Part shown: positions 3,376 through 43,188 of the stretch, one piece after another
How positions within the stretch are numbered: the stretch's first letter is position 1
Layout: the number at the start of each line of letters is the position of its first letter
Made by a program: the position numbers and the translations under genes
Assembly (NCBI GenBank): GCA_040954595.2
Contig: CM082582.2
Span: 6,432,303 to 6,496,302, forward strand
Source: Balanoglossus misakiensis
Taxonomy: Eukaryota; Animalia; Hemichordata
Reading direction: 5' to 3'
Length of the DNA: 64,000 nucleotides
Notes under the pieces: model-generated
Database searches by the model: none
What the model saw: the letters and a program-made list of their open reading frames with translations, nothing else
Told to the model about the DNA's origin: nothing

Positions 3376-6300
3376 ATGGCTACAGCAGAGGAAACTTGCG
3401 ATTCTATGCTCGGTTGGGGTGAGTACATTATATTGTGATTAAATTGCTTCGATGACACCGTGTGGCATTTAGGCCTATAGTTTGGACAGTGGTGTGAAGA
3501 TTTTCAAGATGGTTGGAGGGTAAGAAGACGCTGTTCTCCAGAGAACCTCGAGAAACATTCTTTGAGTGTTTATGGCTGCCACAGTGGCACAGCTTACAAA
3601 ACGAAAGGTCATTTGGGGGTTATTTGAAATAAAACTGATTATTCTGAAGGACCATATACAAAATAAATGGAGATAACCAATTTTAGTCTCGCAATTGATA
3701 CAGGCTTAAATGGGTGTAAAAGGAAAGAGGGATATGATGTGTAGACGTTCAATGGGCCCCAAAGTAGGCCTAGGTTTGAAGAATCAAGTAGGGACGGGAA
3801 ATTTCCAGATATAATTTTTTAGAACAGAGGTACTTTAAGAAACAATATATAATACAATTGATCTCCTCTGCCTTTACCAGATTTAAGGGAGCTTGGTCTA
3901 GGAAATGAACTTGTTCGGCAACTGGCATCTGTTCTGGACGACGATGACTCAAGGTGGCAGATGCTTGCTGAAAACCTCGGAATAGATGGGAAGACCAGCA
4001 AACGTATTGCGCAATGGAGCTTTGAGACGTGCACAAGCCCAACCGAAAATGTGATAACCGTCTACAAGAGCATGTCTCCAACTCCAACCTGGGGAGGGAT
4101 ATACCAAGCGCTTGAATGGATGGCTCAGGGTGGGGCGATGCGAGCGATGAAAGAACATGCCGACAAGCAGAGGTCAAAGTGCGGGGCTTCCACTGGCCAC
4201 CTGCAGGCGTATCACAATAAAACTCCGGGCAATCTGGGACGAAAATTGAAGAAGGGCATGTTGTCGGGGGAGTGCATGGACGCCCTGGGGAAGGTTCTCA
4301 ACCCCAGACACCCGCTTGGGTGCAACTGGAAGCTTCTCGCCCGCAAACTTGGCTACAGACAGGAAGTCATTCGAGATGCAGAAAGGCGGAAGTCCAACCC
4401 CACACTTCACATTCTGTTGCTATACCAATGCAAAACTAAAGCAACCCTGGGGATGCTGTACGAGATTTTACTCGGGATGGAGCGTAATGATGCCGTGTTG
4501 GTCCTGTGGGCCTACGATGAGCTTAAAGAGGGCGAGGAACCTTCACCGGACAGTGAGACTACATCTAAGCCAAAGGGGCACAGCTCAGAAACGGATGGTG
4601 CCAGTGGAAACACACTGTCAGATGATGAAGAGGAAGACGGTAGTGAGGACGATATGGACGATATGGATTTCAAGGACATGCTGTAAGCATGCATTTTTGC
4701 AGTGAATTCTGACTTGCACGAAACTGTCGCGAGAATATACTAGTATGTAGTAGTAAAACGTAGTGCAAGAAGTCAATAACTGTTGTCTGTTTTCCTTTCC
4801 AGTACACAAATGCTACAGATTCCCGAAATGAAAGAGCTTATGAAGGCTTTGGAACAGAGAGATGAAATGCTAAAGATGGGTCAGAATATGACCGGCATGT
4901 TAGGAAAAGCCATTGGTTGGCTTGGATGTCTGGCGGAGACTGCTGGTGAGTCAAGAAAAAAGTCACTGTGAATGGCTAGATGGTGTGGTGGAAAAATTTG
5001 ACCGTATGCCTTCAATGCAAGGTCTCTGGTACGAAATGTACTTGACAACTCTCGTTTCCTTGGACTATGCACGGACATGTATATATCCGCCATCAGAATT
5101 ATCCCTGTTTGATTACCGTAAGATCTGTACATGGATTGGATCTTACAGGTATGGATGTTGATCCCGAGGAAATAGGGTGCCCACTCGGTTCCCAGACGAA
5201 TGTGAACATTCATGGTGGCCAAGTACAATTCGGGCGTGTTAACCAAATAGTACAAGCTCTTCGTCAACTGGAGGGCAGCGCTGGACCAGGGCCTGCATTA
5301 ATCACGGGTCTACCCCATGAAGGTAAATTTGCACGACCTCGTAGACCGTTGTGCCAAATTTTAAAATATTGGTTTTATACTACATGTATGATATCTGGCT
5401 GATAAATACTATAGAACTCACGCCATCATGTTCTGAATATCGTAAATGAATCATGTACATCATACAGTCAGAACCTAGAAAACCTAGAGAACGAGACCCA
5501 ACAAATAGGCCGTTGTCCACAAATTCAAAAAATTAGTTCTTATGAATGTGAGAACAAACGCAAAGTGACCAACTACTCGATCTTTTGCTGTCGGTTTATG
5601 AATTTGCCCAAATTAACATATCCACATTACATCCTTCAAAGATTCACAATTTGCATTGCTTTCCACAGCCACCACGAGGACGAGGAAAATGGAAGGTGAG
5701 CTAGAGGAAATGGGTTTCCCCAAAGAGCATATAAAGAAGGTGTTGAAGCGGCATCCCAGGGTAGGTTTGTTTGTGCACTATAGGCCCCAGCTTAATTCTG
5801 TTGGCTCAAAACTGGCTGAATATATGTCATTTGCATGTGTGGATGTTTCAACGAAGATTCCTTTAGGTGAACAATCAGGCTTATCTCGTCATAGGTCTAA
5901 CAGTTCATAATTAGTGGGCACTAATTATGCCAAATTCTTAAATTGAAAGTCACATCTTCTTTTGTCTTGCAGGCAGACAAGGTTAAATTGATTCAATATC
6001 TTCTGAATATGAAAATGCGAGAACCAGACCGGGAAGTCAAAAGCGGGAAGCCCCGTAGGAGAAAATGGACCACAGAAGACAGTTCAGAGCTGCCTGGGGG
6101 CATGCACGACGAAGTCCCAAGGGGACCGAGAAAACCTGGGGATGGCGGCGAAGAAGAGCCACCGTTGCAACAGACCACTGTCGAAAAGGATGGCCCTGAG
6201 GCCGCAGATGAGCAGGCACGCGGACATCCGGTCCCTGAGGGGGATTCTCCGCCAGAGAGCCACGATCAAGAAAGCGTGGAGAGTTTGGGGGAGGGCGAGT

Positions 6301-8666
6301 TGGAAGATTCCTCTGATCAGCTGGCGAGCCAGTCACCTCTGAAGCATCCGGATAACACCGGAGGAGCTCAGGGAGAGATGCCCTGCAGTTTGGAGGCCAG
6401 TGGAGAACATGACGATTCCGCTGCCGTACAGGGGCAAATGTCCCCTGACAAGATTTCAAGTGGTGTGATTCAAGACCACCAGGAAATCAGTTCACTCGAT
6501 ATAGAACCATCGCACCAATCCAATGACAGTCCAACAGAACCTACGAGTGAATGTTCCGACATCTGTAGTGATGAGGAGTCAGTCCAGGCCGAAAATTCTG
6601 GGTGCAAACTCACCGAAAAAGAAACTACTGTAATGACGGTTGGTCCCGGCAGCCCAGACACAGCCACTGACCTCTCACTTACAGCTGACGCAGACAGCGG
6701 TATTTACTCTCTGTCCAGCGAACACATAACGGAAATTACAAGGAATCGCAGGACTATCATTTCTGACCAGGGTGCATATGGTCCAGTCTTTCAAGGTAAG
6801 TCTAAACTTATTCCAGTATTCGATTGTGATGCTGTTTTAAAAAGTGTGTGAATTTCATATCCTGGTAGTTAACAGTCATGCTAACGAACTGGTCTCTCGT
6901 TTGTCAGGGGTCTTTCCTTTCCAAGGTCCTCACATGGGAGCCAAGGTCGCTGTGAAAGTGCTGAGCGAGTCTGGAGACCACGGTGCAAAGGAATTTAGTA
7001 GGGTAGGGCGATACTACTGTTTATGCTCCATTATCTGTAACTTTTCGCCATATTTTTAGTATTCTTGCTTATGTATCTGCTGCAGTTCCTTGTTCAAATC
7101 AAGAAGCACAATGAAACGCCGGGCCCAATATCCAGCTTATGAACACATGCAACCACAACCTCAGTGGCAAGCACTACAGCCTCTCATGAGTTTTAAAATG
7201 TATACATCATCAGCGTGAGTTGATTGAATAGTGCTTGACAATTAAAAAACCAACATTAGCCAGCAGCGATTGTTTATTGACAGGAAAAAGATGTGGCTAC
7301 TGTCAAGCACCCCAATATCTTGCCAGTATATGGCGTATGTGATGAAGACAGGTATGTTTCTCGTATTATCAAAGTAACTCTTGTTCTTGTTATGCTGGTC
7401 TTCTGTTGATTGACTTTGAATGTTGGATTTGATTTAGCGAAACCCCGAGTATATTTATAAACACAATTCAGGTAAGTGGTATCATTTCATATACACTGGA
7501 ACTGTTTCGGATGAAGATAGGTATTTGTCTACAAATTCATGTATCATTTTAAATTGCTCCAAAAGTGGCTTGTTTCACGACATACTTATCAAGCTCTCAT
7601 CCAACCCCCCATTCTAACAGATGCATCCTGTATCCATACATGGAGAACAAAGATCTAGCCTGTCAGTTGAAAGTTGGGAATCCTGAACTAACATGGCGCA
7701 GGAGACTGGTCATAGCAATTGGCATTGCACGTGCGGTGTTGTGTCTGCATACACCCACCGAGCAGAGGTATCTAGCCTATATGCTCCAATTAGAATTTGC
7801 TGATGTTTCCTTTGAGTACTTAAAACAAAGGCTGTATTAGCGACTATAATGCCTGTTCGTGCATACGGCTACCAGATGGAAAATTTGTAATGCCTTGATT
7901 CTATTGGTTGGTCGCTCTATTAGCATTTGAGTTCCCCCACTCATGCCACATATCAAACGCTTTGATATGCTAAATACCTACGGCAACCAGATGGAAAATA
8001 GTAATGACTTCATTCTATTGGTTGGTCGCTCTATTAGCATTTGCATTCCCCCTCTGCTATTTCCGTGACACTTTTGCAAAAATCATAATGAGTAGTTCGT
8101 ACACATACGACGGTACGTCGTATACTCCCATGGGAGTCTCCACTAGACACTGCCAGTGATAACCATATAAGTAAGCCCGCTTATCCGTACATTTGTAGGC
8201 TTCTTAGAATTTTTCATCGCGATATCAAATCAGCTAACATCCTGCTGAATGGGTCGTGGTGGCCGTATTTAGGAGACACTGGGCTGACCAGAGAGATACC
8301 AGAGGAATGTGTGTACAAGTCGAGAACAGGTGGGGTACCTATGAGAACATTTGCATATTAAACACCATCTGGTCACTAAGAAAATCACTTGCACTGATTG
8401 TGATCACAATTCACAAATCATCCCAGGAAACGAATTTGCTGCACTCATGTGTTTCCATTTGACTTGTTTCTAAGGCACCAAATCCCATATCCCCGGCACA
8501 ATTGGATACAGCGATCCTTCATTGACAAACAAACCGGCGGGGTACTATGACGCAGCATGTGACGTGTACAGTTATGGCAAGGGTAAGAGATACTTAACAT
8601 TATTTTCAAATTAATTATAATGATATGCAATATATTGCAACAGACTTGAGTAGTTTCATAATGCCA

Positions 8667-8697
<31 letters not shown>

Positions 8698-8757
8698 CAT
8701 ACATACATACATACATACATACATACACTCACACTCACACTCACACTCACACACACA

Positions 8758-8820
<63 letters not shown>

Positions 8821-10227
8821 ACACATACATACATACATACATACATACATACATACATACATACATACATACATACATACATACATACATAGGACTACAT
8901 AAACAGAATTTTGCGTATAAAAATAATATAAAGTTTTCCCAAACACTTTTAGTCTTGTTAGAACTCTTCACTGGTACGCTGGCAAGTGCAACTGGCACAG
9001 ACGGTGATTTTGTTCACAACCAATGGGAGGACGATGGTCATTTTGAACAGGAAGATGAATTGGTGCAATTGGCTGATAACTCTAAATGTGTGGTGGGTAT
9101 CCAAAATACACACATTACTTTTCATGTACACTGATACAAGTTAATTGTCCACGCATAATGAGGTTCTTGGCCAACTCCATCATCTAACCTGCATAGCACT
9201 TTTCTTGCATTGCAGGGTTGGCCAGAAAGTGTAAAACAAGAAATTGCGAGAATCATCGTCTCGTGTTTGCTGAGGAAAAGAAGGGAGAGAGCAACATTTG
9301 ATGAAATTTGTGAAAAGTTGGAGGTAGGGCAGCGTTAACACTAACTTATAAAGAACCAGCACTGTTTCAGACGTGCACAATGTCCCTCTTTGTAGATGGC
9401 TTTTAGTACTCGAAGATTCGCTTGTGGCCCTGTTCTGGCAGAAACACATATTGTATATGAAGTATTCAAGTTCAGTATACAATCTAATCCCGTGTCACGG
9501 TCAATGCAACACTGAATTGACTTGAATTCATCCAATGTTATTGATGTTTCGAACTGAGAATGGACGTAAATGGCCACTGTGTCTTTCTCGCACTGAATAG
9601 GCATTGGCAGAGGACCACGGGGTGACACTTTTCGATGCTGCAAACTGCAGGAAGTGTTGCATGTGTCTCACAAACCCTGTCGGTAAGTTCAATCACCGGA
9701 AATGCATCAATCCGTCAACCAACAACTACTGCCTGTGATTGCACAATAGTATAGATTTGTCGCAGATTTTAGTTCATGGCACTGCAAGCCTTTGAATAGA
9801 TAGATACCCTTGGCCTGTCACGCAGTTATAGGGTTAGTTAGGGTATGGGGAATCTCTTGCAGATAATCAACTGCCTGCTCAACAACTTGCATTTGAACTT
9901 CTCGAACATGCACCAATTTTACTAGCATCATCAATACTCTTTCTTTCCCAACAGCTGATCAAGCTCTCCAGTGTGGATGTAAGGTTGTGTGTGCCGAGTG
10001 CATTCAGAATCGCAAATTTAACCACTTGGTTTGTCCGCAGCATGGACGTACACAACCAGCCAGTGGTAAGTTGTTGCACTGAAACATTCCATGACTGATA
10101 ATGTTCGTCTAAACCTGTACCATTTTATGTTCAATAGGAGTGTTGAAATACATCAATGATTAGGTCGCTTATCCACTCTTCCAATACTATTAAACGTTGA
10201 TTTCTTTCAGGTGAACAAAAATACTGA
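3376..10227 (+). CDS. Paralog A: tandem death domain - RHIM - UBA-like - acidic linker - IRAK/Pelle-like kinase - variant RING protein (about 1027 aa, 16 coding exons)
   Basis: Phase-consistent GT-AG exons: 3376-3418, 3881-4682, 4803-4945, 5149-5322, 5669-5760, 5973-6795, 6908-7002, 7284-7351, 7621-7767, 8199-8329, 8475-8582, 8953-9092, 9216-9323, 9601-9682, 9955-10065, 10211-10227 (last exon least certain). Death-domain motifs WQMLAENLG and NWKLLARKLGY..ERNDAV. RHIM NVNIHGGQVQFGRVNQI. UBA-like LEEMGFPKEHIKKVL. Kinase motifs GAYGPVFQG, VAVK, HPNIL, LTWRRRLVIAIGIARAVLCLH, HRDIKSANILL, GDTGL, GTIGYSDP, DVYSYG. C-terminal CCMC..CGC..CAEC..CPQH. Confidence 0.88.
5199..5249 (+). other. RHIM (RIP homotypic interaction motif) coding segment, paralog A
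   Basis: Translates NVNIHGGQVQFGRVNQI. The core tetrad VQFG resembles (I/V)Q(I/V/L)G, with the typical upstream aliphatic residue and downstream N at +3. Confidence 0.75.
7864..8043. repeat. Intronic imperfect direct duplication of about 65 bp
   Basis: TACGGC(T/A)ACCAGATGGAAAAT...ATTCTATTGGTTGGTCGCTCTATTAGCATTTG at 7864-7929 and 7979-8043. Confidence 0.8.
8668..8891. repeat. Compound microsatellite (ACAT)n-(AC)n-(ACAT)n
   Basis: Directly visible in an intron of paralog A. It accounts for the spurious HTYI and MYVC ORFs. Confidence 0.97.
9655..10043 (+). other. Variant RING-type zinc finger coding segment (split by one intron), paralog A
   Basis: Spliced translation CCMCLTNPVADQALQCGCKVVCAECIQNRKFNHLVCPQH has RING-like ligand spacing, with Cys at ligand 4 and His at ligand 8, and the CP of the last pair retained. 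Confidence 0.72.
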
Positions 10228-10737: not shown

Positions 10738-11703
10738 CAAAAGTGTTTTAAGGCGACAACCGCATAGTAATTAAAAATCATTATACAATGATAGATATCT
10801 TACATCTTATATCTGAAAAATACACATGGATTTAAAGTCATTACCGACTGTGGAAATTTTCCAAACATGGATTCATGTACATGTAATTGAAAGCTAAGGA
10901 GTCTCTAACTCACTGACTACGACACAATTCAATCTTTTTGCAGTTTTTCATAGTTGTTTTTTAATGGAAAAGATTTGATCATGTTATATCAAGCAAAAAC
11001 CTATTCCACATACTGTGATCACCAACTAATAATGTTTGATGACTTGAATTTAAAAAACTCAGCAAAAATAATTAAAGTAACTCATCTTGGCAGACACATT
11101 CCCCACTTATAACTTCAAAGTCTGAAGTACATGTAATAAAACATTATACTGGATCAACAGGAAAAATATGCAAGTGTATTATGAAGTGCTCAATGGTGAC
11201 AAGAACTGGTAGGCCTGCTGCAATTGGCTTCCATGCCAACATCCCAAATGTTGGATACTTTCTCTAAGCTTCTGTATCTTTCACTTGCTTGAGTGCACAC
11301 ACTCTTTGACCAGTTTCCACAGCCAAGCCTACAATTTGTCCGTGTATGGTAGAAATTCCACCCTTTAGATTTCCCTGTTTATAGACTCATTCCTGCAAAA
11401 TCAACATTAAAATGCAGATCAAGAACAAGATCATTTTCATATTCAAAATATGCATAACTGATTGATATGTGAAATTGGCATTTTCAGATATACGTACTGT
11501 TGCCATGATTACACCAAATCAGATATGCAAAGTTTACAAAATCTTCTTGGGTTACCCCCAGGAACATGCCTACCAAATTTCAAAGCAATTTGACAAGCTG
11601 TTTCAAAGAAAATGAAAGCACTAAAATTATTTATACCGAGATCTTTAAATCTCATTAAAACATATTAAATGAATATTCAACTCACCAGGAGAACACATCC
11701 TGT

Positions 11704-14700
11704 TTATTTGTCAACAGGAACAGTGATATTGTTCTTTTCAGCTAAGGCCTATTGAAAACAAAATAAGTAGGATTCAACTGCTGCACACTTAATTATAGAC
11801 ACTTCCTTCTATAACATTACACTGTGCTTTTTAAATGTTGATGCAATCTGTACCACACAACACAAGTATGCTAACCAATTATGATATTTGACTTAAGAGG
11901 TTTTTAAATAATCACAGAGACAAACTTATATACATCCAGAGTATATACAAGTATAAGCCCAATCATGCATTATGACCCCAGTAGTAGGGTGCTTTCTTCC
12001 AGAACATTGGGCCCAATTACACAACTATAGATTTTTGCTGTCCAAACAGTGCGCCAATTACTTGCAAACTAATTGTATTTCACACGACGAAAACAATATG
12101 GGACTTTTGATACAGAACAAACAATAATACAAAAATTATGTTCAACATCTGATTATACTTAGCAAAGATACCTCTAATTTCTTGCACGTGTCTTCTGTCG
12201 TGGATCGCTTCTTTCGTGCTGGATTCAAACATGAGATCACAATCTCTGCAAATTCTTTAGTTACAGCATTTTCTTGTGGATTAGGCCATCCCTGATTTTC
12301 AAGAGAACATGACAATTTTTCCAGTAATGTTTTTGTGGTAATAGTACTAAATCATGCATCATATGACATGTAAATTGCAAAAATTAACAAAATGAAGAGG
12401 ACAAGGCTAGACTGTATGTGGAGCCTAGCGAAATAACACTTAAGTCTTGATTCTAGACTATCATAAAATGAATTAAATCCAATTAACATACCACGGACGA
12501 TTCAACGGCCAATTCACACAGCATGTCAGGGTCAGAAAGACAACCATCATCAATCCATGTATTGTGCATGTAGTCTCCATCCTTTTTATCTTGGGCTAAC
12601 ACATTGGTTAAAAGTTCCATAAAAACTGTAAAATAGTCAAATAGTGCAGGTTTTATCACATCATACAAAGCAGGTTTCACACCCAGGCTGGAGTCACAAC
12701 CCCTTGCACAGAAATCAAACTTGAAAGTAAATATACCACACCAGGAACAGTTCTCCAGGTAAACTTAAGGATTAGACACCAAAGTAACATAAAAAATTCA
12801 CAAATGAAAATACTATTTCACGCACCTTTCCCCAGACTGTAAATATCGCAATAATCGTCATAGTAATTAGGGGGTTTTAAAATCAGTACATGGTCTTGAT
12901 ATCCACGTGTTCCACTGATACACAACTGAGAACCTAAACAGAGCAAAATAAAATGGTTCCATTAACATGTGTGCATGGTTTGGCGACATCATGTGGTTAA
13001 AATGGACAGTGCATTGGTAGATACTGGTATTTGCTTTCAGTCCATTCATCATTTTCAAGAAACTTAACAATGTTTGTTTGTAACAAATCATTGTCAATAG
13101 TCTCCAAACAGAGGATGAAGTTTATATGAAATGACCACAGGTATTATATAGGATCTGATCACTAAACAAATCACAAAAATATGTATAAATGTATGTACAT
13201 TATATAGAGTTGCATGCATATACTTGTACAAACATACATACAAACATACAAACATACATACATACATACATACATACATACATACATACATACATACATA
13301 CATACATACATACATACATACATACATACATACATACATACATACATACATACATACATACATAAATATGGACATGTACACATTAATCAATTTAACCTGT
13401 CATGGAGAGGTGTGATTTTTCCATAGCTGCTTCTCTAGTCAGTCCAGTGTCTCCTAAGTATGCCCTCCATAACGCATCAAGAAGTACATTAGCAGACTTG
13501 ATATCACGGTGATAGATCTTGAATTTCCTGTGGTACATTTATTCAGAAAAGAAAACAATGAATAGTGTCAAACTGCAACCTTCCAAACTCCAACTAACAA
13601 TATTCAGTACTTGATAAACTCTGCATATTTTTGCAGCAGAACTAAAGTTTAACATTTGGGAAATACAATTTCATGTTTCAATGAAATTCATCAGTGATAA
13701 TGTTGTAATGGTACTTTAGAAATTAGCAACTAAGTAAAATTTTCTCAGCAGTATCTGTAAGAAGTCACTCTGTGACATATCATTCCATGTCTTCACGTCA
13801 AAAATCAAAAACACACTGAAACTAAGCATAGCATAGTGTGTCTGGATATCATGTATGAATTATTGCATTACACCAGGGACCTCTACCTGTCTCCAGTTGG
13901 TGCAAGAAGGCAATGCAAAGCTCTGCACAGACAAATAGCGATCACCACTCTTCTCTGCCACGTCAATTCCGGATTTTTCTCTTTGATTTGATGAGCCAAG
14001 TCTCGATTCTTCATGTATGGATACACTATGCTCATAGGATATCTGTGAAAACATCAAAACAGGACAGTGTCTTAATTTTCACATGTTTGGTAGTGCTTAA
14101 AATTGGGTGTTTAATCATTGGTCATTAAGCTTAAATGCCATGATTTTCAAATTACTAGTATTACAATCCTACATATGCTTAGTATTGAACATTAAAAATA
14201 ATAACTTGTTTCAAATGACATTCCTAACTTAACTTTGAAAAAGTTGATAACAGCTAGTCAGCAGTGTGATGTAAATGTAGACCTCATCAAAAAGAACACA
14301 CTTCATGTAAATGACAAGAGAGTAATAAAGGAAATAATCGCAAGTCATTCACACCAAAGCACACATTGCAGGTAAACAAGAAACCCAGAACATTACCCTT
14401 CATCTTCACAAACCCCTAACACAGGCAAAATGTTTGCATGCTTAACACCAGCAACACTCTTCTCCTGAAATAAACAATTGGACAAATTATTTGTCTTAGT
14501 ATACACCATATCTCACAAATATCCGGTTATTGTATGATGTTCTGTAAGGTGACTACAAATCTTCACTTTTGAAATCTATGTAACCAACAGACAAACGTTT
14601 TTCAATCATCTGTAGGATAGCAGCCACTATTTTCAGAATGAAGAAAATGTCTCCTGACTATGATACTCTTCAAAAGACAGAGGGTATTGCAGAACTTGTC

Positions 14701-17700
14701 AAATAAAGAAAACTATTTGAAAATAATGGCATCTTTCTGTCCCTTTAATTGTTTATATACATGAACTCCGGCCAAAATGTCTCATTACCTGCAAGGGTAA
14801 AACAAAACAGAGCAGAACAATATCCATGTATCTACTTGTAAATCTATAGTTATCATTTCAACAAATAACTTGGCGAGTTGTTTCCACAAAACCTCCTACC
14901 CGTTTATACTCTCTTTCTCCATGAGTTCCACTGGTGTCAAGGATCTTCACGGCCACCTCCCTACCATTAAACACTCCTGTGACAAAGTAGAACAAGACCT
15001 TGTTAACTGTCACAACAGTGACGAGTACCATCCCTACTAAGTAACTAAAGTAAAGAATGGTAGCCACTCATTTCAGGCATAGGCATGTTTGAGTTATGGT
15101 TCTGGATACATAAAACTAAAATTGCTCAGACAAACCATGTACAAACTATTATTAAGTTATCCTTGTGCCACCTTTGAACACAAGACGATTAAGGTATTTA
15201 TCATTTAGAGCTTGGAACAAATGAACATGCAATGAAGGATTGCAAGACGGTGAAGGAGGAAGAAGATATACTCCTAGTATACAGCGTTTTTTCACCTTAA
15301 CCTAAGGCCAAGATACAGACAGTAGTAGGCAGGATACTTATAAATGAAACATGCCTTTATAAACTGGTCCAAATGCACCTTCAGAGGAAATAATTTGGTC
15401 TTCAGATCTGTTGTTGGTGATTTGTTGAATGTCCGCGGCATGCAAGACATATACACCAGTCTCTAATGTCTTCAGTGATGAGGGACTTTGGAGTTTTGAT
15501 GCCTCTCTCCCCTCTTCACCCTCACCCTCGATATTTAACTGGTGGCTTGTCAAGTTTGCTGAAGCACCTACAGCAGCAGCAATGTCACCTGGCTCTGGCA
15601 ACGTTCGTGCAACTGCATCTTCATTCGCGGCGCTAGGTTCCTGCAGCGATGGCATTCTGACATCCGGGATTGTATCTTCGGAAGGCGTCGCAGTGGGTGC
15701 ACCTGGCGTTGACATTGGTGACTCACTGCTTGCCATTTCAACAGGAGGCTCACTACCGACACTCCTTAACCTGAAATCCGTTTCATCTTCTGCTGCTGCC
15801 CTATCCATCTCTGAATCATTCCCTGGTTTTGATGGAGCCACGTCATCTTCTCTGTCCTGTCCTCTTGGTGGATTTCTATCAAAATCTGTCTGACCAGGAA
15901 CTCCATGGATGCCAACCTCTTGTGTTTCTTGAGGTGGATCATATGTACCTGTAGGCCAATCAGGGTTACCATCTATGCCACTTTGTGGTCGACCACCTCC
16001 TGGTGCCAGTAACTTATCAAATGACTCATCTTCAGGTGTTTCTTTCGCTTCTTCATGAACAATAGCAGAGTAGTTTGCTCCTGGCATTTGAGTGTGCTTC
16101 TTCAGTGACTTTGCCTCTGCAGCCCTTGTGTCATCTCGTCTTGGATCTGTCTGGGCCTGAATACCACGAGCTACCAGAGTATTATCTGAATCACTATTAT
16201 CTTCAGTCTGTGGCTGTAAGCTGGAATCAGGAACGACGTGTGTCACCTCTGATAAAGCTGCCGTTCTGAGACTGCCTGCCATCACCTCCTCCCCACCTCG
16301 TTGGGGAACTTCAGAGTCTTCAAATCTCACGCGTTGGTCTCTAGGAGTTGGCACTGTCGCTTCTGGAGCATTTTGCACTGAAGGCTGTGACGCATCACGA
16401 TGTGCTGCTGCGTGAGTGGGCACATCTCTGGGGACTGGTTCTATATCTTCTCTGGTACCTCCGCCAACAGTGTCCTGATTTGCGGCTCTGTGGTCAAGTT
16501 CTTCCGTTTGTTGAGGCCCAGGCCCTTCTGTTTGCGGCTGTGGGACATCTCTTCTGGTGAGTTGGTCTGCTGGTAGGTTCTGGGTTTGCAAGGAGGACCG
16601 TGGTACCTGTTGGTTGTTAGGGCTTGCAGACATGTCTATTCGTACAGGTGCTGTGCCTACACATGGCACAATGCCTACTGCTCCTTGCCGATCATCTGCG
16701 CCAGGTCCAGTAATATTTCTTGGTACCGGCCGTTGATCATCTTGACCAGGCGGTTGAATCTCTCTACCTTCCCCTCTATACCTTACTTCAGGGATTGGAC
16801 CATGGACAGTTTTACCAGGGGATCCCCTCTGATCTACATATTGAAGATCTGCTGGGAGTTGTTCGTCTACAGGCTGCTGCTGAGACAACTCTGCTTTTTC
16901 AAAGAACAGGTTTGCCAATTCATTTGCATCTGCCTATTGACAAATATAAAGGATAATACACGGTTAGCATAACTTACTATTATAAGCTGCAAGACAAGTT
17001 GGACAATTGTAAATTTGTATCATTGTACTTCTACATATCATGGTTGTAATCCTATCCTTGCATCTCATTATTTTCAGTGATTTAAAAACCAGTACAAGTC
17101 CAGTACCTGTGCTCTTTTTAGGAGTGGCTAACATCAGATGTTTACTGATCTTTATGTACTTTTACACAAAATAATTGTTCATTACACACAGACTTTTGCT
17201 TTATTTATCGTGCAGTTCATCAAAATAAAATTGATGGCATTCCCACCTCAGGATGCTTTTCAATCAACGTGTTAATTTCCTTTTCTGACAACCCAAGAGT
17301 TTTGAGGTGATCTTTCTTGATTGCAGTAGTCTCTTGCATTTGCATCAACAACCTGTCTGCTTGTGGAGCTTGTTCGCCTACACTGGGAGGAACAACTCTC
17401 GGTGCATCTATTGTCAATTGAAAAAATATATGAGTGAACATATTCAACATGACACTGAATTTGCAAGTTTGATTTTTTGACACAGTGTGTGTCGTAATCC
17501 AGTGACAAGAGAAATAGGTGTCGAGTATCTAACTTACTTGTTCTGGCGTCTCCTCCACCCTTCTTCTTACTCTTTTGTGGCTTTTTTGATGGTCTCTGAG
17601 TAGTTATGATTTGATTGTAATTTCCAATCTGTACATTGCCTCCAGTGATATTCATGACTGGAGGCGTGGACTGCAGAGGTGGCATTTGTACATCCATCCA

Positions 17701-20542
17701 GGATTCTTCAATAAAAATATGATATACAAAAATCCCTTTTGAATACCACAATATCAATTACAAGAAAACCTCTTGTACATGCACAAATGTATTATTCAAC
17801 CTCTGACTGTTACTGTACGTTAAAATGTAAACAGGTTAAATAATAAAGTGGTGCCGCACCCGTTTATTGAATCGGCCTCTAGTTGTAAGAGTACTATAAC
17901 ACAACTAAGCATGACATGCTCACATGCATATTCTAATTGTGACAAAATTCTAAATGGTGTGTTGTCTGTCAGCTAAGTTTGAGGAGAAATTTGAATTACA
18001 TTGTACATGTATTTGAGAATATGATAAAACTGGCAGCTCTTGGGGTTTTAAAAGGGATATTATATTCAACCAATGGACTATGTACATGAGCTGTTTATAA
18101 ATGGAAAAAAATCCAAAATTGCATGTCAATTTTACTTTATCATTAACGATTTATAAAACGAGAAAAATAATAGTTTAGTTCTACAATGGTATGAGACATT
18201 CCCACGTGAAAAAAAGAAATACAAATTTTGTCTTACCCATCTCTTCATCCTTATCAGATGCAAGGCTAAAGGCTCTATCAAACAAGTTATCCACGTCACT
18301 AATGTCTGTGAAAATACATAAAACTTGACAGCTCAGTCTTTTTCACCGATTTTCAAAGGTACAAACACCCCAACATCAATGAATAAACATCAAACATTTT
18401 ATGTGGCAAAACTAATGAGTGGTACTCACAACCACAATATGCAACATCATAATGTACCTACCACCTGTTCTACTTGCTTGCCTTGTAGCTCTCCTGGCTT
18501 TGTCATCTCTAATACCCAAACCTTCTAACTGTTCTACTACTGTTTTTATATCATCAGGTGTTGGATGCCATGATCTGTGAAAAAGATCAAATGATACATA
18601 AGTGTGTATCCTATAGTACATTAAATGTTACTGTGAAAATGTCTATCCTTTGGTGTGATGTATCCTCCACTGCTGAAACAGATTTAGTGCAAAAAAGTAC
18701 AGTACCCTCTCCATTGGTCCAAGGTTCAACTTTTTCACAATATTTTTCAAAAGCTATCAGTTGGACCAGTTGGGATGGGATACGTGAACCATTAAATGGA
18801 ATATACCTGGCTGTTCTTGGTCTCTGCTCAGACATTTGTCTTGCTGTTTGTCTCAGGACTGGTCGGTCACTGTAGGCAGTATAGGGCAAGCTTTTAGTTG
18901 CTGGTGGGCTCAGACTATCTCTGACGGATTCCTCTTCAGTCAATTCTCCGTTTTTCCACAACAGGTAGATGACATCAAACCTTGGCATGGCCGCCAAAGC
19001 ACTGCATAGTTCCCCGATTGTAGCGCCCAATTTGCACTGGAAATCCTGTAGCAATGCAAGGGCCTTGTTACTCTTTAGCTCAAACTGGGAAATGTGATTT
19101 GGATGGTACCTCAATCTATCGGCCAGCAGTTTCCAGTCTTTGCGCAGCGGGTGTGGCACATTGAGAAGCTTGCTCACTTCGCTCAAGCAGCTATGACCCA
19201 ATTGTTTAGCCCTCAGCGTGCGCTGGGGATTAGCTGGTCTGTCCCATCCAACCGGCAGGCTGTCTGAAGCACTCTCTGATGAAAGATTTAACTCCCGCAC
19301 ATGTACCACTAATCTTTCCTCTGCATCAGCCCTGTTCATCGTTCTCAATGCCTTGTGCAAGCCTTGCCATGTTGGCAGCTCACTTTGCGTTCGGTAAATT
19401 TTCAGCACGCACTCTGTTGGGGATTTTTCGAGTTCCAGGGTTGAAATTATGTGGGAATCATCGTATCCCAGATGCACGGCTAGCATTCTCCAGTCATTTC
19501 CCAGAGGGTTTTCGGGATCCAAGTACATGGACAAATCAATGATGCAGGAGTGGGGCAAAGGATGATCCCTCAAGTCTGAAAGATTGCAAGAGAACATACC
19601 ATATATTTTGGCATCAACTAAGTGGATTTGCTCAACCCTTACCGGTATTACTGAACACTTTGCAGGCAGACAGACAGACCGACAGACAGACAGACCAGCA
19701 AATCTTGACTCACTGACAGATTACCCACAACACAAACTATCAGAGGTCGCGCTTGGATTTTTGGCTGCGAGTATTTTTTGACGCGTCCATAGAAAATGAT
19801 GTGTCAAATTTTTCCTCCCCAACATTGTTGAGTTAATTTGCTTTTTGAGCTCTGTATTTTATGAAATGTTCTAACAGGGAAGGGGGACACCCCCTCCCAC
19901 ATCCACCCCCTTAACTTCTCTTGATTTACTATGTCTGCCAACTATCATAATGACTTGTATTTTCAGTTTATTCACGTCTTATTTTAATTATTTAAATTTA
20001 TTCAGATATGCAAATTGTCAGTTATTCATTCGCTAAGTTTTTGAAAGTTTGCATGGGGGGTCACCCACTTTTCAATTTCCAATGACGGGGGTGGGGATCA
20101 CCCCCTTTTTGATATAAAAAAATAGAATCCACCCCCAACCCCCGGCTAAAGAAACTGACCAGTCCCTTAATAGGGTCATGATAGGTTGCCAAAACAACTA
20201 GTAACTATGCGTATCATAGTAAATTTTTGTACTTGACACAAGTCCACTGCGCTGTTCACCAAGTTGTCCACGGGTGCTCGTATTATTAATGGAATAGTCT
20301 ATCGAGGGCGACGTGCGAGATTACGAGTTCGAGGCCGAAGGCCGATCGACCCTCTTCGGCCTTGATCGGCCTCACACTTACACTCTCGGACATCCGGGCC
20401 CTTGATCGATAAAGACTATCCAATCACGATCATTGTGTCGTTTATCCTTCTTGTCATGGCAGAAAGGAGACGCGTGAACATGAACTTGAATAGTTCTTCC
20501 TTACTTACCCCAAGCAGGAAGTAATGTTGCCATTTCTCCCAT
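11704..20542 (-). CDS. Paralog B: tandem death domain - UBA-like - RHIM - UBA-like - long acidic linker - IRAK/Pelle-like kinase, no RING (about 1243 aa, 15 coding exons)
   Basis: Phase-consistent exons (minus): 20542-20509, 19575-18807, 18574-18462, 18305-18237, 17705-17538, 17407-17247, 16933-15355 (GC donor), 14976-14900, 14464-14397, 14042-13887, 13527-13397, 12933-12826, 12625-12492, 12291-12172, 11748-11704. Motifs NDWRMLAVHLGY..MNRADA, DWKLLADRLRY, RHIM MNITGGNVQIGNYNQI, EGAFGPVYKG, VAVK, LTWQRRVVIAI, HRDIKSANVLL, GDTGL, GTRGYQD, DIYSLG. Kinase exons of 68, 131 and 108 nt equal those of paralog A. Confidence 0.88.
13232..13364. repeat. (ACAT)n microsatellite
   Basis: Directly visible in an intron of paralog B. 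Confidence 0.97.
17608..17658 (-). other. RHIM coding segment, paralog B
   Basis: Translates VMNITGGNVQIGNYNQI, with a canonical VQIG core close to the RIPK1 (IQIG) and RIPK3 (VQVG) tetrads. Confidence 0.85.
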
Positions 20543-27265: not shown

Positions 27266-30200
27266 ATGGCGGACGTTGAGCTTTATGAAGTCCTTGGCGT
27301 TAACAAAAACGCAACTGACGCCGAAATTAAGAAGGTATGCTGGTTTTATCCTCACGTGTCTTGTTCTGCGAATATGTGTTCGAAAATTTGTCCATGAATC
27401 GTCTGATTTGATGTCCACGCCGCTGTGAAACGTGGTAGAAATGCGAATACCAATTTACGAAGATCATTGTGCGTATTGTTCATTTCGCCGGTATGATACT
27501 ACATCGAGTGCGTGCCATAAGCGGAAATGACCTAGCGCATCATGTCTTCACGTGCTCTCGCTCAAATCCACCGCAAGCCAATGTCAGTCACCCTGAATAT
27601 CGCTATGTTCACTTTATAATCCACTACCCGTCACAAGTATTTCCATATTGAGTTTCCCTAATGTTTTACGCCATTAAATTTGGCACAAGATCTAGATCAC
27701 TTTACGACTACGGTAGACATAATGTCATTTCTTTAGGCAAGAATCCCCCCCCCCCCCGCACCGGGATTAATTCACCCATGACAATGAAGGGTGAAGTTGT
27801 TGAGAAAGTATGTTTATTCTAAATGCATGATTTTAGCGTGGAAAAGGGAAAGGGAAATGTGAGATTATTTCATTGCCTGTTGTGAGTTCATCGTCGACTC
27901 TGACTCCAACCTTGGCCATGGACAAACTCTTTTTGTATAATCTACGCTCATAGGTTCAAGTATGCATTGCTGTGTGTGGTTTTCATGTTTCTGTATATTA
28001 TTTTTTTTTTGCAGGCATACAGAAAATTAGCCAAGGAATTTCATCCAGACAAGAACCCTCAACATGGAGAGAAGGTATAAAAGCACTATAATTTTGTTGC
28101 AGATAACAGCATTTCTGACCTTATTTTAATAAGAAAAATTCTCCTCTTTGAGAAAGCCATAAAATGAACATCGGAATATGATGTGCTCATTTGTTTGTGA
28201 TTGAGGTATTTTTAGCTGCCAGTAAACACCTATATATAGCAGTGGATTTTTACCAAATTGGTTGTATATGTATGTACTGACCGTTACGTATGTATGCATG
28301 TACATACATTTGTCTATCCATCTGGTGACTACAAAAATTTCTCAACCACTGGATGGCATCACTTCAAAAGTTAACAAATACATATAATTATATTTATGGT
28401 ATAAACTAATTGATATTATTCCCTTTATTAACAGTTCAAGGAAATAAGTTTTGCTTATGAAGTTCTTTCAAACCCTGAAAAGCGTGAAACATATGATCAG
28501 TATGGCATGGAAGGAATTCGAGGTGAAACAGGACCTGATATGTTTGGTGAGTACACGTAAAACATGCAACGTGTGATTATTTAACCCTTTCACCACCATG
28601 GTGTGGTCCAAATCCATTGTTTTCTTCTTACTTCTTAACATGTACTTGATATGATATACTGTGAGTTTAAATTTTCGATTCTATGCTTAAGTGTTTTATA
28701 ATTATTTCTTTTTTGTTACCACAGGTGGTGAAGACATTTTCTCTCATCTATTTGGGGGTGGTATGTTTGGTGGAATGTCTGGTTTTGGCGGTGGCGGGAG
28801 ACGAAGGAAACAAAGGGGGGAAGACACAGTTCATCCACTAAGGTAATAATAAGTGAGAGTGGGTTTTCTGACAAGTCATGTATTTGCTCTCCTTATAGTT
28901 AGCAGCAGGATTGTCACTGAGTTAATGATGAGGCCTTCAGTTATGGTTAAATATACAAATATACAAACTGTAGCATGCACATATTGTGTACCAAAAAAAA
29001 TTGGCTGAAGAGAATTTTTGTTGACTGACAGAAACCATGTAAATAGTACTTTTATTTTCTTTCCTTTGCGAGTCTGACAGTGTTTCTTAGTGTTTTGGGC
29101 GCTGCAGTATTTGTACCAATCCCGACCTTATTCTTGCATTTTGTTTAGGGTAACATTGGAAGACCTGTATAATGGCAAAACGGCCAAGTTACAATTGAGC
29201 AAGAATATTATATGTCGTATCTGCAACGGGTAAGTCAGTCTTGCTGAATAGATACATATGAACATCAATAAGACATGGAAATGACCATCAGTTCAACCTG
29301 TATCCCATCCGTCCATCCACCCATCCATTAACTGTATTTTTGATGTGTCACAGGCAAGGCGGCAAGCAGGGTGCAATGCAGACTTGCAGGGTGTGTCACG
29401 GCCGTGGTGTCAAGGTCACAATCCGGCAACTCGGCCCCGGCATGGTGCAGCAGATGCAGTCGGTGTGTCCCGAGTGCCACGGCGAAGGTAAGGCTCAGAT
29501 CTCTCCTCGCTGAAAGATAGCATGCAGACGAGTTTAACTCTGTCACTCCATATGGTGTGAAGACAGACAGAGAGCACTGTGTTGACTATCTGTGAAGCAG
29601 CAGTAATCTTTCTCTCACTCTATCGACCAGTGATGTGATAATGTACCCTGTTCACTTCACAGGCGAAACAATTAATGAAAAAGACAGGTGTAAAACTTGT
29701 CATGGTAAGAAAGTGGTGAAAGAGTCGAAAATACTACAAGTGCACGTGGAAAAGGGCATGAAGGATGGGCAGAAAATTACATTCCGCTGGGAAGGTGACC
29801 AAACGGTAAGTGATATCCTGTCTTGTCCGTACATGCATTTTTTTACTGTGCAGATTCTGATGTGTCTGCAGGCTGCCGTGGGTGGGACTGTGTATTCTTG
29901 ATATCACAAAAAAGGTCTAGAAGGACGGCTTTGTCCCTTTAAGCCTTTCACCCATCAGTTCCGTCTTCAGAGGTCTAACCTTACCTTAGAAAACAATGGG
30001 TTTGGACTGAACCATGGTGGTTAAAGGAGTTAACAGACTGCTTGAGAGGGGAAGCGATGAAGAGCCCAGTCTGTTCAGAAGCAGGGCAGCGTAGTCAAAA
30101 CCTGGTCAACACGAAACTTACCCGACGCAGTCCACTGGTACTTGTCGGACGTGAACACCAAATCAGCTGCTTTCCCTCAGCCTGAGCGCCGAGCCTAACT

Positions 30201-31442
30201 CAACTTACCGTTCCATTTCTGCTTCCACAGCCCGGTCTTGAACCTGGAGATGTAATCATAGTTTTACAGCAGAGAGAGCACGATGTTTTTCAACGTAGCG
30301 GCGTCGACCTCTACATGACACACTCCCTGGGCATAACAGAGGCACTATGCGGATTTCAGTTCCTTTTCAAACATTTAGATAGCAGGGAAATATGCGTTCG
30401 ATATCCTCCAGGGAATGTCATTTCCCCAGGTGAGTTAGGCCTATTCTATATATGTTTGTACCATTATGCATTTATAGCAGTAACTAGGTAAGAAATAAAC
30501 TTGAAAAAAAAAATTTGTTTGGTGGTATAAGTGAAATGAAAATTAGAATAACACTACATATTTTTTTCCAAAATAAATGTATGTTGCTTCAATTGGAAGA
30601 AAGATGCAGGATTTCAGAGTGGTTTCCGTTTCCCAATATTTATGGATACTGATTACTGTATATACTGTATAAAATCCTTTTTGCAGGATGCACACGCTGT
30701 GTTGTTGGTGAAGGAATGCCGGTGTATAAGAATCCATTCGAGAAGGGAAATCTATACATCAAATTTGACATTCAGTTCCCCGACAATAACTTCCAAGATG
30801 AAAGCAAGCTGAAGGTAATTATCGGCAGTCAAAATACATTGTGAGCTTGGCTTATAGAAGTGTTTAGGTTTCTTCATTGTACCTTTACTCTTTCAAAGTC
30901 AAGACCAAAAAAAAAAACATCAACAACAGAGATTTTAGTGATTGGCAAACTTCTAAGTGGCTTCCAATATTTACAAATGCATAATGGTCACAACTCTCTA
31001 AGTTTTGAATCACCAGCATTTGTGATAGGATAGTGGAAGCTTTGCAACCATTTCGTTTTTGTGTTGGAAGCTAAGAAAGTACAGCATAGAAAGAATCATT
31101 TGAAGGACTTTATTCTCTTTACAAAAATATTCCTGTGTTACGGTCTGCCTTTCGGTGCGCCTATTTGCCTCTCAGTTCACTGTCAGTTGTAGCATATTGT
31201 CCAATACACCTTGCCTGGGTTCCGCCTGAGGGGTAACTGTCTGGTTCTTTTTGCAGTTGCTGGAAAAGCTGCTGCCACCTCGGCCAAAACAAGTCGTCCC
31301 GGAAGGCGCGGAGCCAGAGGATGTGGACTTGATGGAGTACGACCCCAGACATTCGTCGAGTAACTCGCGACGCGAAGCATATCACGACGAAGACGACGAG
31401 GACATGCATCAAGGTCACGGAATGCAGTGCGCTCACCAATAA
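27266..31442 (+). CDS. DNAJA2: DnaJ homolog subfamily A member 2 (Hsp40), about 10 exons
   Basis: [13 protein letters not shown]-domain FHPDKNP, G/F-rich region, four zinc-finger repeats ([32 protein letters not shown]), [17 protein letters not shown], and C-terminal CaaX CAHQ as in vertebrate DNAJA2. Confidence 0.95.
28581..28625. mobile_element. Truncated copy of the TTAA-flanked mini-MITE
   Basis: TTAACCCTTTCACCACCATGGTGTGGTCCAAATCCATTG matches the left half of the element at 40822. Confidence 0.65.
29939..30033. mobile_element. Diverged inverted copy of the TTAA-flanked mini-MITE
   Basis: TTAAGCCTTTCACC...CAATGGGTTTGGACTGAACCATGGTGGTTAAAGGAGTTAA is the reverse-complement homolog of 40822-40914. 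Confidence 0.7.
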
Positions 31443-34400
31443 CCCCACAAAAAACCCGTCACTAGCATTCTCATAGTAGCCGACGTCTAAGCTCTGTGAT
31501 TCCGTCTCTGACCTTTGGGGAGAGCCAACACCTTAATTAAAAAAAAATCAGACCAAGTTTTATTAATATTACCGTACGAGCACTTCAAATTTGACTTGTA
31601 ATTCTTAAAAGAAATGTGGTGGTGGCTTTAATGGCATAAGGCGATTTCTGAAGGTAACTTCTTTTCTTCGAAAGTTGTCGGAAATAAATGGCAGGTAATA
31701 TTTACACTGTCGGGGATTGCCCAAGCAGTGAAATGTCTTGTGAGGAATGGCTAGCCACCTATCAGTTAAACCCAGATCTGAGTTTCCTGTTGTATCAATG
31801 TCATTCGCGCGCAAATCAATCTTTCCTCATTGAGATCTCCACACTCTGTTGAGAGACTCTGCTTATTGACGTCCCATTACTCCAAATTTTGTTGTTCAAG
31901 TTTGTAATATCACCTCATTTCATTCAAGAAAACGTGTTTTTGTGTTCCCGAGCCATCAGCAGAAACGTGTAATTATAATTCAATGTCACGCTTCGTGATA
32001 GTACCAGTATTAGTAACCAGACGTGAACCTTGCATGTGTATTGTTTCAAGTTCAAGGTAGACCCATTTCAACTTATTGCAGTCTGGCCCAGTGTTTGCCA
32101 CAAGGGAACCTAATCTTATGCTGGCAATGGGGTAGGGGGTTGAAATTGACTCAATATTATAAGAACTTCACTCATGATATATGAAATTAAATAAGTGAAT
32201 AACACGTCACCTAATCAATACGTTTCACACAGTTCAAATATTCACAACAAACTTTTCAGTACCGAGGAATTCACTTCTAGAATGCGAAAAACACGGAGCT
32301 GGTAAATTTGATGAATAATAACCTTTGGAAACGAAACAGCTCAGGAAATATTAATAACTTACCACACTTTATCATATGAAAATTTGTCAGTGGTGAAAGA
32401 ATTTGGATGCGTTCCAAAGGAAACAATTGATATTTTAGATGCTAGAAAATATTGTCAATCCCTCTTTTTTTTTTCATGTTGATTTTAATCATTATGTGTG
32501 TTACATGGAGAAGCCCCTTGAATTTACTAGGTATTTTTTTGTTATTATTTAGAAAGTGTGGAAGGTATATTAGTCTTTGACATGGAAGATGGGATTGAAT
32601 GAAAACCTCTTCATAACGGCCAATCAGGGAACAGTCGATGATAAAAACTGTGACCGTCATACAGTGGTTGCTTTGGCGACGCTATGATGATAACTTTGAG
32701 GAAATTTGTACAGATTCTAAATGTACTAACATGCTGGGATGACCGCCTCAATTCTCACGAAGTTCTAGACAGAACATTATGCGATATGATTTTTTTTTTG
32801 TATTATTTTTTCGGGTGTATTTTTCTTCATCCAGAGCTTCTACAATGGAGGCTTTTCAATTCAGACTACTTTTTACTATGTGTACATGTTTATGTGTAAA
32901 GTGGTGTCATGTTGGTTAGCTGTCTTTATAGGGAGAAAACTCAGTGGAAAAGTGGTGTTTAGGCCCTTCTTGATGCCAATGGTGTTTTTATAGTTCTCTC
33001 GATCCGGTGAATACGAGTGCAGGCATTTGTCCATCAGCCTGAGGAGCGAATGGCTGCTTTTGTCTGAAACTGTCGCAGGCTTATTACAAAATACACATCA
33101 ACTGCAAGAAACTGTTCTCTTGATGAAACCGTATTTTAGATGAGACATACAACCAGTCCCTGGTTGATTCTGACAAGAGCTTATTACAGAAATGCTTGTG
33201 TACATTCAAAGTCTGGACTTTGTGAAATGACGTTCCCCCTGATTGAATATACAGTGTTTGGTGTATCACGTTAATCTTTAATCACAGTCATTTCATAGTC
33301 AAATTATTGTTACCATCTCCAAATTTGTTTTCTAACTATAAAAAAAACTCAGACCTTGTGTTAGGGTGTGTGTGTGTTTGGCATACTGGCTGAACTGACT
33401 GAATGACGTTCTGCAAAGAAAATTATCAGCTTTGGCAGCAAAGTAAAAGAAACTTACTGCAGTTCACAATTTCGTGACTTGTTACATACATTGAGCATCT
33501 TACGATTCCTGTTCATGGCACATTGGCATACATTGTTGGAAAGACTGCACGCTTTGGAGATTTCAAAAACGTAGGCTATAGGGATTCTAAGGGAAGGTGC
33601 ACACACATTACCATCGCTTGCTACTTTGCTTACTTAAGATCAATGTTCCTTTTGACAAAAATAACGGATTGAAACTCTCTGTATTTATATACTGACTGTG
33701 TGGTTGCAATGGAAATGCCTTTTTCAAAAGATGATAATTGTAAACAGTGACTCAGCATGTCTTGACAAAATGCATTTTCGCGAACAGCGCCCCCATGTGA
33801 CCCAGTAAGCCCACGTGTGACCCCCACCACCCTGGACATAAGTTTTTAATAGTGCATATCTCTCGTGGAGATGTGACTTTTAATTTTTGTTTCACAACTT
33901 TGCTCTTCTGGCCAAAGTGTTGTTTGTGTTAACGGCGACATGCGACAATATTTATTGGTGGCAACTGGCAACCCAGAGAATGTATTATTGAACGAAATAT
34001 GCCAATAAAATATTTCTTTTAAACAATTCAATCATCAAGGTGTCGCGCAGTTTTGCCGAGTTTTTTTTTCTTTGATCAAAATGGATAGCATCGTGCAGTC
34101 TTTCATGAAGTTTGGAAATAAAACCAAAACATCCACTGTTGATATACCATCTCATCATGTAAAGGAACCAGCAAATGTAAAGATCAAGCCATCTCTACTC
34201 TACATGTAATTTTTAGCTCACGTGTGTACAGGTAGTAATTTGAATATTTTACAAATTAGTGCAATTATTGTTATAAATCAGAACCATTTTTATGAAATTT
34301 ACTAGAGATGGATCAGATCAATGAGATTAGTTGCATTGAATGAAGTTGAATTTGGTAAGTCATTGCTGAAATTTGCACATTTTCAGTCTTCATCATACTG

Positions 34401-43000: not shown

Positions 43001-43188
43001 AATCAAATAACCAGAGTTCAGTGAAACAAGCCTGTTACCTTTCTTGCGGAGGTCAATCCTCGGCCAGAAGTCTGGGTTTCGAAGAACCGCTTGACAACGT
43101 TGGTCCTGCTGCTGAGCCTCGACGAATGCCCATGACGATTTTTGGTGATGTGGGATTTTTTCATCACTTTGCCGGTTAAGGTGCTCAT
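37011..43188 (-). CDS. TRPC4AP: Short transient receptor potential channel 4-associated protein (TRUSS), multi-exon
   Basis: Motifs recognised from the human protein: NLFGGIE, QLANFCRVLSIAVSD, IMHEVMYKVEVLYVLCLLLTGKQR, HDENCECSPEIALKIQFLRLIHSFCDHH, FRFWLGRAIESYLRG, LQSSFDLLGELMKFN, QENVSCLNTTLVFLMFA, FWQDHYLHKDKDCTALEKSSCISF. Start could be 43188 or the in-frame ATG at 43164. Confidence 0.95.
40822..40914. mobile_element. 85-bp MITE with TTAA target-site duplication (piggyBac-type ends)
   Basis: TTAA-CCCTTTCACC ... GGTGAAAGGG-TTAA, in a TRPC4AP intron. Two related copies lie in DNAJA2 introns. Confidence 0.8.

Follow-up and report, generated by a model that had tools for sequence, protein, structure and literature searches.

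A conserved RING-like finger variant at the C-terminal end of a predicted IRAK/Pelle-type kinase of the acorn worm Balanoglossus misakiensis

Background

Does a kinase gene of the hemichordate Balanoglossus misakiensis also encode a RING finger, and could its product then act as a ubiquitin ligase as well as a kinase? The question is raised by a stretch of 64,000 nucleotides (GenBank assembly GCA_040954595.2, contig CM082582.2, positions 6,432,303 to 6,496,302 of the forward strand), referred to here as the window, in which an earlier note had described two small exons following a kinase and encoding a RING finger of unusual ligand set. The surrounding DNA is intron-rich and of animal type. 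ORF fragments at 29596-31500, 37400-45600 and 46700-50600 resemble what we take to be DnaJ (DNAJA-type), TRPC4AP-like and UBA2/SAE2-like genes respectively.

Results and discussion

Exon organisation of gene A

The model of the gene, referred to as gene A, was built by hand from splice signals, and its joins rest on these signals and on orthologous proteins. All 15 introns are of GT-AG type and the exons form a single frame without an internal stop. The features of gene A and of its neighbour, paralog B, are given below with their positions in the window.

3376..10227, + strand: predicted coding span of gene A, 16 exons, 1027 amino acids
3881..4682, + strand: exon 2, with a pair of death domains and an acidic region; PF00531 in two stretches, E 2e-18
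5149..5322, + strand: RHIM-like motif with core VQFG (exon 4), from comparison with the consensus
5669..6010, + strand: exon 5 and the first part of exon 6, UBA-like domain with an MGF loop; PF00627
6714..9323, + strand: kinase of IRAK/Pelle/RLK type, reaching from the end of exon 6 through exon 13; alignment and profile matches
9216-9323, + strand: exon 13, the last kinase exon, joining in frame to exon 14
9601..9682, + strand: exon 14, post-kinase linker with Cys1 (9655) and Cys2 (9664); splice model, aligned to the Ptychodera flava orthologue
9955..10065, + strand: exon 15, Cys3 to Cys7 and His8 (9972-10043) and tail; splice model, PF13920 and tblastn
10211..10227, + strand: predicted final exon of the coding region, contributing five residues and the stop (10225-10227); splice signals alone
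11686..19575, - strand: paralog B, with the domains of A and an intact kinase, start exon not located, tail-to-tail with A

Exon 14 is entered in phase 0 and is followed by a GTAAGT donor at 9683, while exon 15 has a strong pyrimidine tract ahead of its acceptor and a second GTAAGT donor at 10066; the splice sites of both exons are near consensus. A tblastn comparison of exon 15 with the protein P0021 gives an E-value of 3e-11. The orthologue of gene A in P. flava (RefSeq XP_070576017), which shares 42% identity over 1068 columns, aligns without gaps through both junctions, and the Ptychodera RefSeq models join the same exons as our model. The in-frame splicing of two small exons behind the kinase, as proposed in the earlier note, is thus supported by the GT-AG model and by the Ptychodera joins, and these exons add a RING-like finger to the C-terminal end of the predicted gene A kinase. 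The gene as modelled ends at about the point where a caspase-like domain starts in its relatives. When the exon of the death domains was used to look for homologues, none of 3022 candidates matched at an E-value of 0.001, although orthologues exist.

Domains preceding the finger

The predicted protein comprises two death domains, a RHIM-like motif, a UBA-like domain, an acidic linker, an IRAK/Pelle-type kinase and the finger, in that order. The core of the RHIM-like motif reads VQFG in gene A, VQMG in the P. flava orthologue and VQIG in five relatives as well as in paralog B. The consensus of this core is (V/I)Q(V/I/L/C)G in the part of PMC9444067 that we draw on; gene A departs from it at the third position and its RHIM is putative. 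The UBA-like domain (residues 394-430), which lies about 550 residues ahead of the finger, is matched by PF00627 on exon 5 alone with an E-value of 0.0028, under the Pfam cut-off. The linker between this domain and the kinase is acidic and poorly conserved.

The kinase retains the lysine of the VAVK motif, the glutamate of helix alpha-C and the aspartate of HRD, and DFG is replaced by DTG with the aspartate kept. Identity with the P. flava orthologue extends to 202 of 294 kinase residues, and among solved structures the kinase is best matched by those of plant RLK/RLCK kinases and of IRAK4 (E 1e-29 to 5e-20). The earlier reading is supported to the extent that the finger is fused to a kinase with its catalytic residues kept, in a chain with a UBA-like domain. 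The RHIM-like motif and the protease-linked family context were not remarked upon in the earlier note.

Ligand set and conservation of the finger

Residues 977-1015 of gene A conform to C-x2-C-x11-C-x-C-x3-C-x2-C-x10-C-x2-H, the cysteine codons starting at 9655, 9664, 9972, 9978, 9990, 9999 and 10032 and the histidine codon at 10041. The spliced translation agrees with the spacing first proposed (x11, CGC, x3, CAEC, x10, CPQH). Shuffling of the 69-residue tail produced any eight-ligand RING-like spacing in 2 of 20,000 trials.

A profile of 60 positions, combining four collected fingers with the two exons of the window, was run against 1,835,955,588 representative sequences at E-values up to 0.001. 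It matched 11 proteins (three query sources and eight new ones), all encoded by hemichordates or lancelets of the genera Ptychodera, Saccoglossus, Glandiceps and Branchiostoma. As a short profile would miss distant copies, the absence of the finger from other animals holds at the tested sensitivity only. These 11 proteins together with gene A and P0025 constitute the family considered here, with 14 finger copies in 13 proteins, isoforms excluded.

All eight ligands are kept in each of the 12 complete copies, the remaining two being truncated models without the first ligand pair. Ligand 4 is cysteine in 14/14 copies, where the C3HC4 fingers of the RING-HC type have histidine, and ligand 8 is histidine instead of cysteine, also in 14/14, in a tally whose pattern required this histidine and from which no profile match differed. 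The pairing of Cys at ligand 4 with His at ligand 8, first noticed in gene A alone, is therefore constant across the family. Between gene A and XP_070576017, 23 of the 39 finger residues are identical. Leaving the ligands aside, the shared residues number 15/31 in the finger as against 101/214 in the death domains and 58/230 in the linker; the finger is thus conserved about as well as the death domains and about twice as well as the linker.

The extra cysteines at the start of the finger, which had been put forward as additional ligands, do not fare so well. The cysteine of NCRK is serine in the orthologue and the second cysteine of CCMC is kept in 3 of the 12 complete copies, so that neither is a conserved ligand. 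A third zinc site formed by these unconserved residues was considered and rejected.

Evidence for a RING fold

The eight Cys/His ligands stand at the spacing of the RING superfamily, which equals, column for column, that of aligned C3HC4 fingers. Exon 15 alone matches positions 18-40 of PF13920 (E 0.031), and positions 1-41 are matched by P0003 (E 0.0011) and P0140 (E 0.0054), below the cut-off of 27 bits; PF13920 is the sole RING family matched. A whole-protein Pfam scan of the P. flava orthologue gave no RING match. Since the finger scores under the Pfam cut-off, all proteins of the family are unannotated for it. Comparison of the finger profile with the sequences of solved structures yielded 11 sequences, all of RING proteins (best E 0.18), and an atlas search with exon 15 gave leads under 0.9, mostly to RING clusters.

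An AlphaFold2 model of the P. flava finger, built from family rows only, has a pLDDT of 65.7. Searched with Foldseek, this model gave 136 matches, none at an E-value up to 0.001; the best 41 of the 136 are all RING-bearing, with IDOL and cIAP1 in the lead (E 0.12-0.17). VIA-align over 48,161 chains ranked MEX3C first (Z 4.2, rmsd 2.4, 47 aligned residues) and the best 24 of 50 chains are RING-bearing, a B-box appearing at rank 25 with Z 2.8. The nearest folds are thus those of IDOL, cIAP, MDM2, MEX3C and MUL1, with no single match significant for this model of pLDDT 65.7. In a second structure model the protease is resolved and the fingers are poor, with pLDDT under 50 over most of the finger.

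In a cross-brace RING, ligands 3, 4, 7 and 8 bind the second zinc ion. Ligands 4 and 8 share this site, so the displacement of the histidine from 4 to 8 leaves a Cys3His site and need not change the fold. The finger is likely to adopt a RING fold and to take up two zinc ions. We regard the finger of gene A as a real and conserved RING-like variant on a new architecture. Its ligand set offers a natural test of how freely the RING fold can move a histidine within one zinc site.

Features bearing on ligase activity

The positions by which RING E3s contact their E2 are taken in part from PMC3166285. Gene A has Met two residues after ligand 1, Leu directly after ligand 2 and Pro directly after ligand 7, the hydrophobic residues of loop 1 and the proline of loop 2 being thereby present. 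At the helix contact, four residues after ligand 6, the usual Trp or aliphatic residue is replaced by Arg; over the 14 copies this position is His (6), Arg (2), Tyr (2), Gln (2), Asp (1) or Asn (1) and never Trp, Leu or Ile. The linchpin position following ligand 8, at which Arg is a usual and not a universal feature of RING E3s, is Gly in gene A and His (6), Gly (5), Arg (2) or Leu (1) over all 14 copies. The tail after the gene A finger is polar and unconserved, with no conserved hydrophobic residues.

The cost of a changed linchpin is illustrated by RNF38, in which Gly or His weakens binding of E2~Ub 36-fold or 22-fold respectively (Table 1 of PMC12326332), and the same source, as far as drawn upon here, names XIAP (Tyr) and Doa10 (His) as active E3s without the linchpin Arg. 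On these sequence features the E3 activity of gene A is doubtful; a strong IAP-like ligase appears unlikely and a weak one, dependent on clustering, possible.

The finger-protease family

In 9 of the 13 family proteins a caspase-like domain (PF00656, above cut-off) follows straight after the finger, and a tenth, P0029, ends just inside the protease domain. The SGH and DxC motifs of a His-Cys dyad are present in all 8 of the proteases examined. The ninth, P0141 of B. belcheri, has a caspase of QACRG type instead of the metacaspase-like one; either the protease has been swapped or the gene model is fused. The fold of the modelled Saccoglossus protease finds matches in Geobacter GSU0716 (E 4.8e-7), in the yeast metacaspase Yca1 (1.4e-6), and in legumain and MALT1, at E-values of 5e-7 to 1e-5 and 10-17% identity; P0146 gave no informative solved-structure match by sequence.

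P0144 and P0147 carry the finger and the protease on ROC-COR-CARD scaffolds without a kinase, indicating that the finger travels with the protease. In P0140 of Saccoglossus, residues 141-229 form two tandem fingers ahead of the protease, the second with a linchpin Arg. Among the Glandiceps proteins, the end of P0022 coincides with that of the last kinase exon, while P0146 starts within the finger and runs into the protease; the contigs that carry them are equal in length, and the two may be parts of one split gene model. A lancelet subclade (P0141, P0142, P0143 and P0145) has HCD for HRD and DPG for DFG.

In a kinase tree of 22 rows the window kinases group with those of P. flava and other acorn worms, and the protease occurs in the lancelet clade and also in that of the hemichordates. 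From this distribution the three-part kinase-finger-protease module is probably ancestral, and gene A has probably lost its protease. No caspase-like remnant has been found in the 64-kb window (best E 0.3 by tblastn and 1.2 by profile). In a tree of 30 rows drawn from the collected kinases, without vertebrate IRAKs, the family forms its own clade (support 100/99); grouping with three arthropod Pelle domains is not rejected (p-AU 0.35), and orthology to Pelle is neither established nor refuted by it. The best tree joins the family with kinase-C3HC4 proteins of microbial eukaryotes, with support of 82/85 to 90/82, unstarred, which neither establishes nor rejects an origin from such proteins. In the corresponding position, five such Pelle-like kinases of microbial-eukaryote or environmental origin (P0033, P0017, P0048, P0067 and P0118) have a canonical C3HC4 finger, and P0033 shares the glycine loop S-x-G-A-F-G-P-V with the gene A family. 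The kinase-linked canonical fingers of microbial eukaryotes end in CPICR in 5/5.

Paralog B

The exon of paralog B that is homologous to exon 14 of A (11748-11686, - strand; 0/500 shuffles as good) has a stop ahead of the codon for ligand Cys1, the stop codon lying inside an AATAAA. B itself thus stops before the finger that its P. flava orthologue, P0003, keeps. No remnant of exon 15 has been found downstream of B; a candidate for such a decayed exon was rejected, as 204/500 DNA shuffles and 88/300 protein shuffles were as good. The 1579-base exon of B is followed by a GC donor at 15354 (- strand), the matching intron of A having GT. A second UBA-like segment before the RHIM appears to be present in B (18574-18237, - strand) and in P0022 of Glandiceps (PF22562, E 0.055 in P0022). 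TACA/CA microsatellites at 8675-8892 and 13200-13370 lie in kinase introns of the two paralogues, one intron apart.

Possible function of the finger and alternative explanations

The best explanation, for which we consider the evidence evenly balanced, is that the finger would be a conserved zinc adaptor in a family combining kinase, finger and protease, and would have at most weak E3 activity. Its usual position directly ahead of a caspase-like protease points to a regulatory zinc module and not to a strong ligase of IAP type. The ancestral protein may have been a one-chain switch of immune or death signalling, in which the death domains and the RHIM would cluster the protein on an activated receptor platform, the UBA would read ubiquitin there, the kinase would trans-phosphorylate, and the finger would serve as a zinc interaction module through which the kinase is coupled to the switching on of the protease that follows. 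Gene A, having lost the protease and kept the finger, would then act as a protease-less signalling partner of the protease-bearing paralogues or as a brake on them. Several observations count against an adaptor: no single fold match is significant, the finger is conserved without the protease, residues of the E2 face are kept, and active E3s without a linchpin Arg exist.

Another reading, which we regard as possible though somewhat short of even, is that the finger is a working, conditional RING E3 and that gene A combines kinase and ligase. Clustered by way of its death domains and RHIM, and with an E2 that does not depend on the linchpin, the protein would be able to ubiquitinate itself or its partners, and the UBA would bind the product. 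The RING spacing, the nearest folds (IDOL, cIAP, MDM2, MEX3C and MUL1), the retained Met, Leu and Pro of gene A and the UBA-like domain in the same chain speak for such a ligase, as do the precedents of KEG and MEKK1 and the canonical C3HC4 fingers with linchpin Arg at the same position in related kinases of microbial eukaryotes. Conservation of the finger in A without an attached protease likewise suggests a role independent of that protease, which could be ligase activity. The linchpin Gly, the Arg at the helix contact and the want of a conserved hydrophobic tail argue against it; moreover, the position two residues after ligand 1 is Tyr, His or Cys in lancelet copies, and the E2 face is therefore not constrained throughout the family. 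It is improbable that the gene A finger is a remnant left after deletion of the protease and on its way to being lost as in paralog B. Such decay would account for the termination of B just before ligand 1 while P0003 keeps the finger, and for the end of A at about the start of the protease in relatives; the eight ligands and 15/31 other residues held in common with the P. flava orthologue and the near-consensus splice sites oppose it. Less credible still is a superficial likeness to RING, in which the eight residues would bind zinc in a sequential topology of LIM or B-box kind: the low confidence of the model, the low fold scores, the B-box at VIA rank 25 (Z 2.8) and the Pfam scans of the A orthologue without a RING match would fit, but RING ranks first by sequence, by profile and in both fold searches, and the spacing is identical to that of column-aligned C3HC4 fingers.

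Returning to the zinc adaptor, a wider proposal is made tentatively, at rather less than even confidence: a switch of immune or death signalling, undescribed so far and contained in one chain, may be common to acorn worms and lancelets. Its parts would be a death domain, a UBA, a RHIM, an IRAK-like kinase, the His-swapped RING and a protease that resembles metacaspases and is unlike the caspases of animals. The finger would be the element that couples to protease activation and would have been shuffled with the protease onto ROC-COR-CARD scaffolds, both window genes would be protease-less regulators, and the switch would date back to the deuterostome ancestor, with a loss in vertebrates. One chain would thereby bring together what vertebrates spread over IRAK, RIPK, cIAP and caspase-8 or MALT1, namely a kinase, a motif of amyloid-forming type, a reader of ubiquitin, a finger resembling RING and a protease resembling caspases. 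If true, this would inform on immune and death signalling before the vertebrates and would add a metacaspase-like protease to the deuterostomes.

Comparison with known systems

Many RHIM proteins of Branchiostoma have been reported in PMC4262963, the consulted text of which mentions neither RING nor IRAK and the architecture figure of which could include the family. As far as drawn upon here, PMC9573974, PMC8195603 and PMC5978004 do not describe the family, and their supplements may bear on its novelty. A literature search with most subscription papers outside its scope found no paper on the family or on the ligand set. A survey of the amphioxus immune repertoire from 2008 could list these architectures.

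The finger resembles the RING-HC fingers of PF13920 (cIAP, IDOL, MEX3C, MUL1) and that of MDM2 in its spacing (x2/x11/x1/x3/x2) and in the Pro after ligand 7, and differs from PF13920 RING-HC fingers in Cys4, His8, the linchpin Gly, the lack of a hydrophobic tail and scores under 27 bits. The SHI/STY proteins are transcription factors. Their finger in Arabidopsis (FHC05) has His at ligand 8, and Cys at ligand 4 is known in C4C4 fingers (RING-C2, CNOT4); the combination of Cys4 with His8 is absent from the finger types described in the portions of PMC3166285 and PMC6118397 on which these statements rest. The gap between ligands 4 and 5 is 4-5 residues in plant RING-C2, and it is 3-4 in the family fingers.

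Gene A shares with IRAK4 and Pelle an N-terminal death domain and an IRAK/RLK-type kinase, and is set apart from them by its two death domains, RHIM-like and UBA-like regions, DTG for DFG, C-terminal finger and separate clade. The proteases of its relatives are akin to the metacaspases and paracaspases of clan CD (folds of GSU0716, Yca1, legumain and MALT1, with a His-Cys dyad), and differ in their low identity of 10-17% to these matches and in their fusion to a kinase and a finger; none is encoded in the window.

In the IAPs the UBA is adjacent to the RING and the C-terminal tail is hydrophobic. Like the UBA-RING IAP proteins, gene A has a UBA-like domain, its loop reading MGF, and its RING-like finger is C-terminal. 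The analogy to these proteins, proposed when the exons were first described, weakens on closer comparison: gene A has no BIR, its UBA-like domain is about 550 residues away from the finger, and the linchpin Gly, the helix Arg and the missing hydrophobic tail depart from the IAP features. The P. flava orthologue and ten window exons were scanned with Pfam for a BIR, and none was found.

That gene A is a new kinase-E3 hybrid is possible, and the idea of such a hybrid has precedent. Kinase and RING E3 are combined in one chain in KEG of Arabidopsis and in MEKK1, according to the passages of PMC5385374 and PMC12728233 respectively that we cite. The fingers of KEG and MEKK1 are N-terminal and active, and are joined to kinases of other families without a death domain, RHIM or protease, whereas that of gene A is C-terminal.
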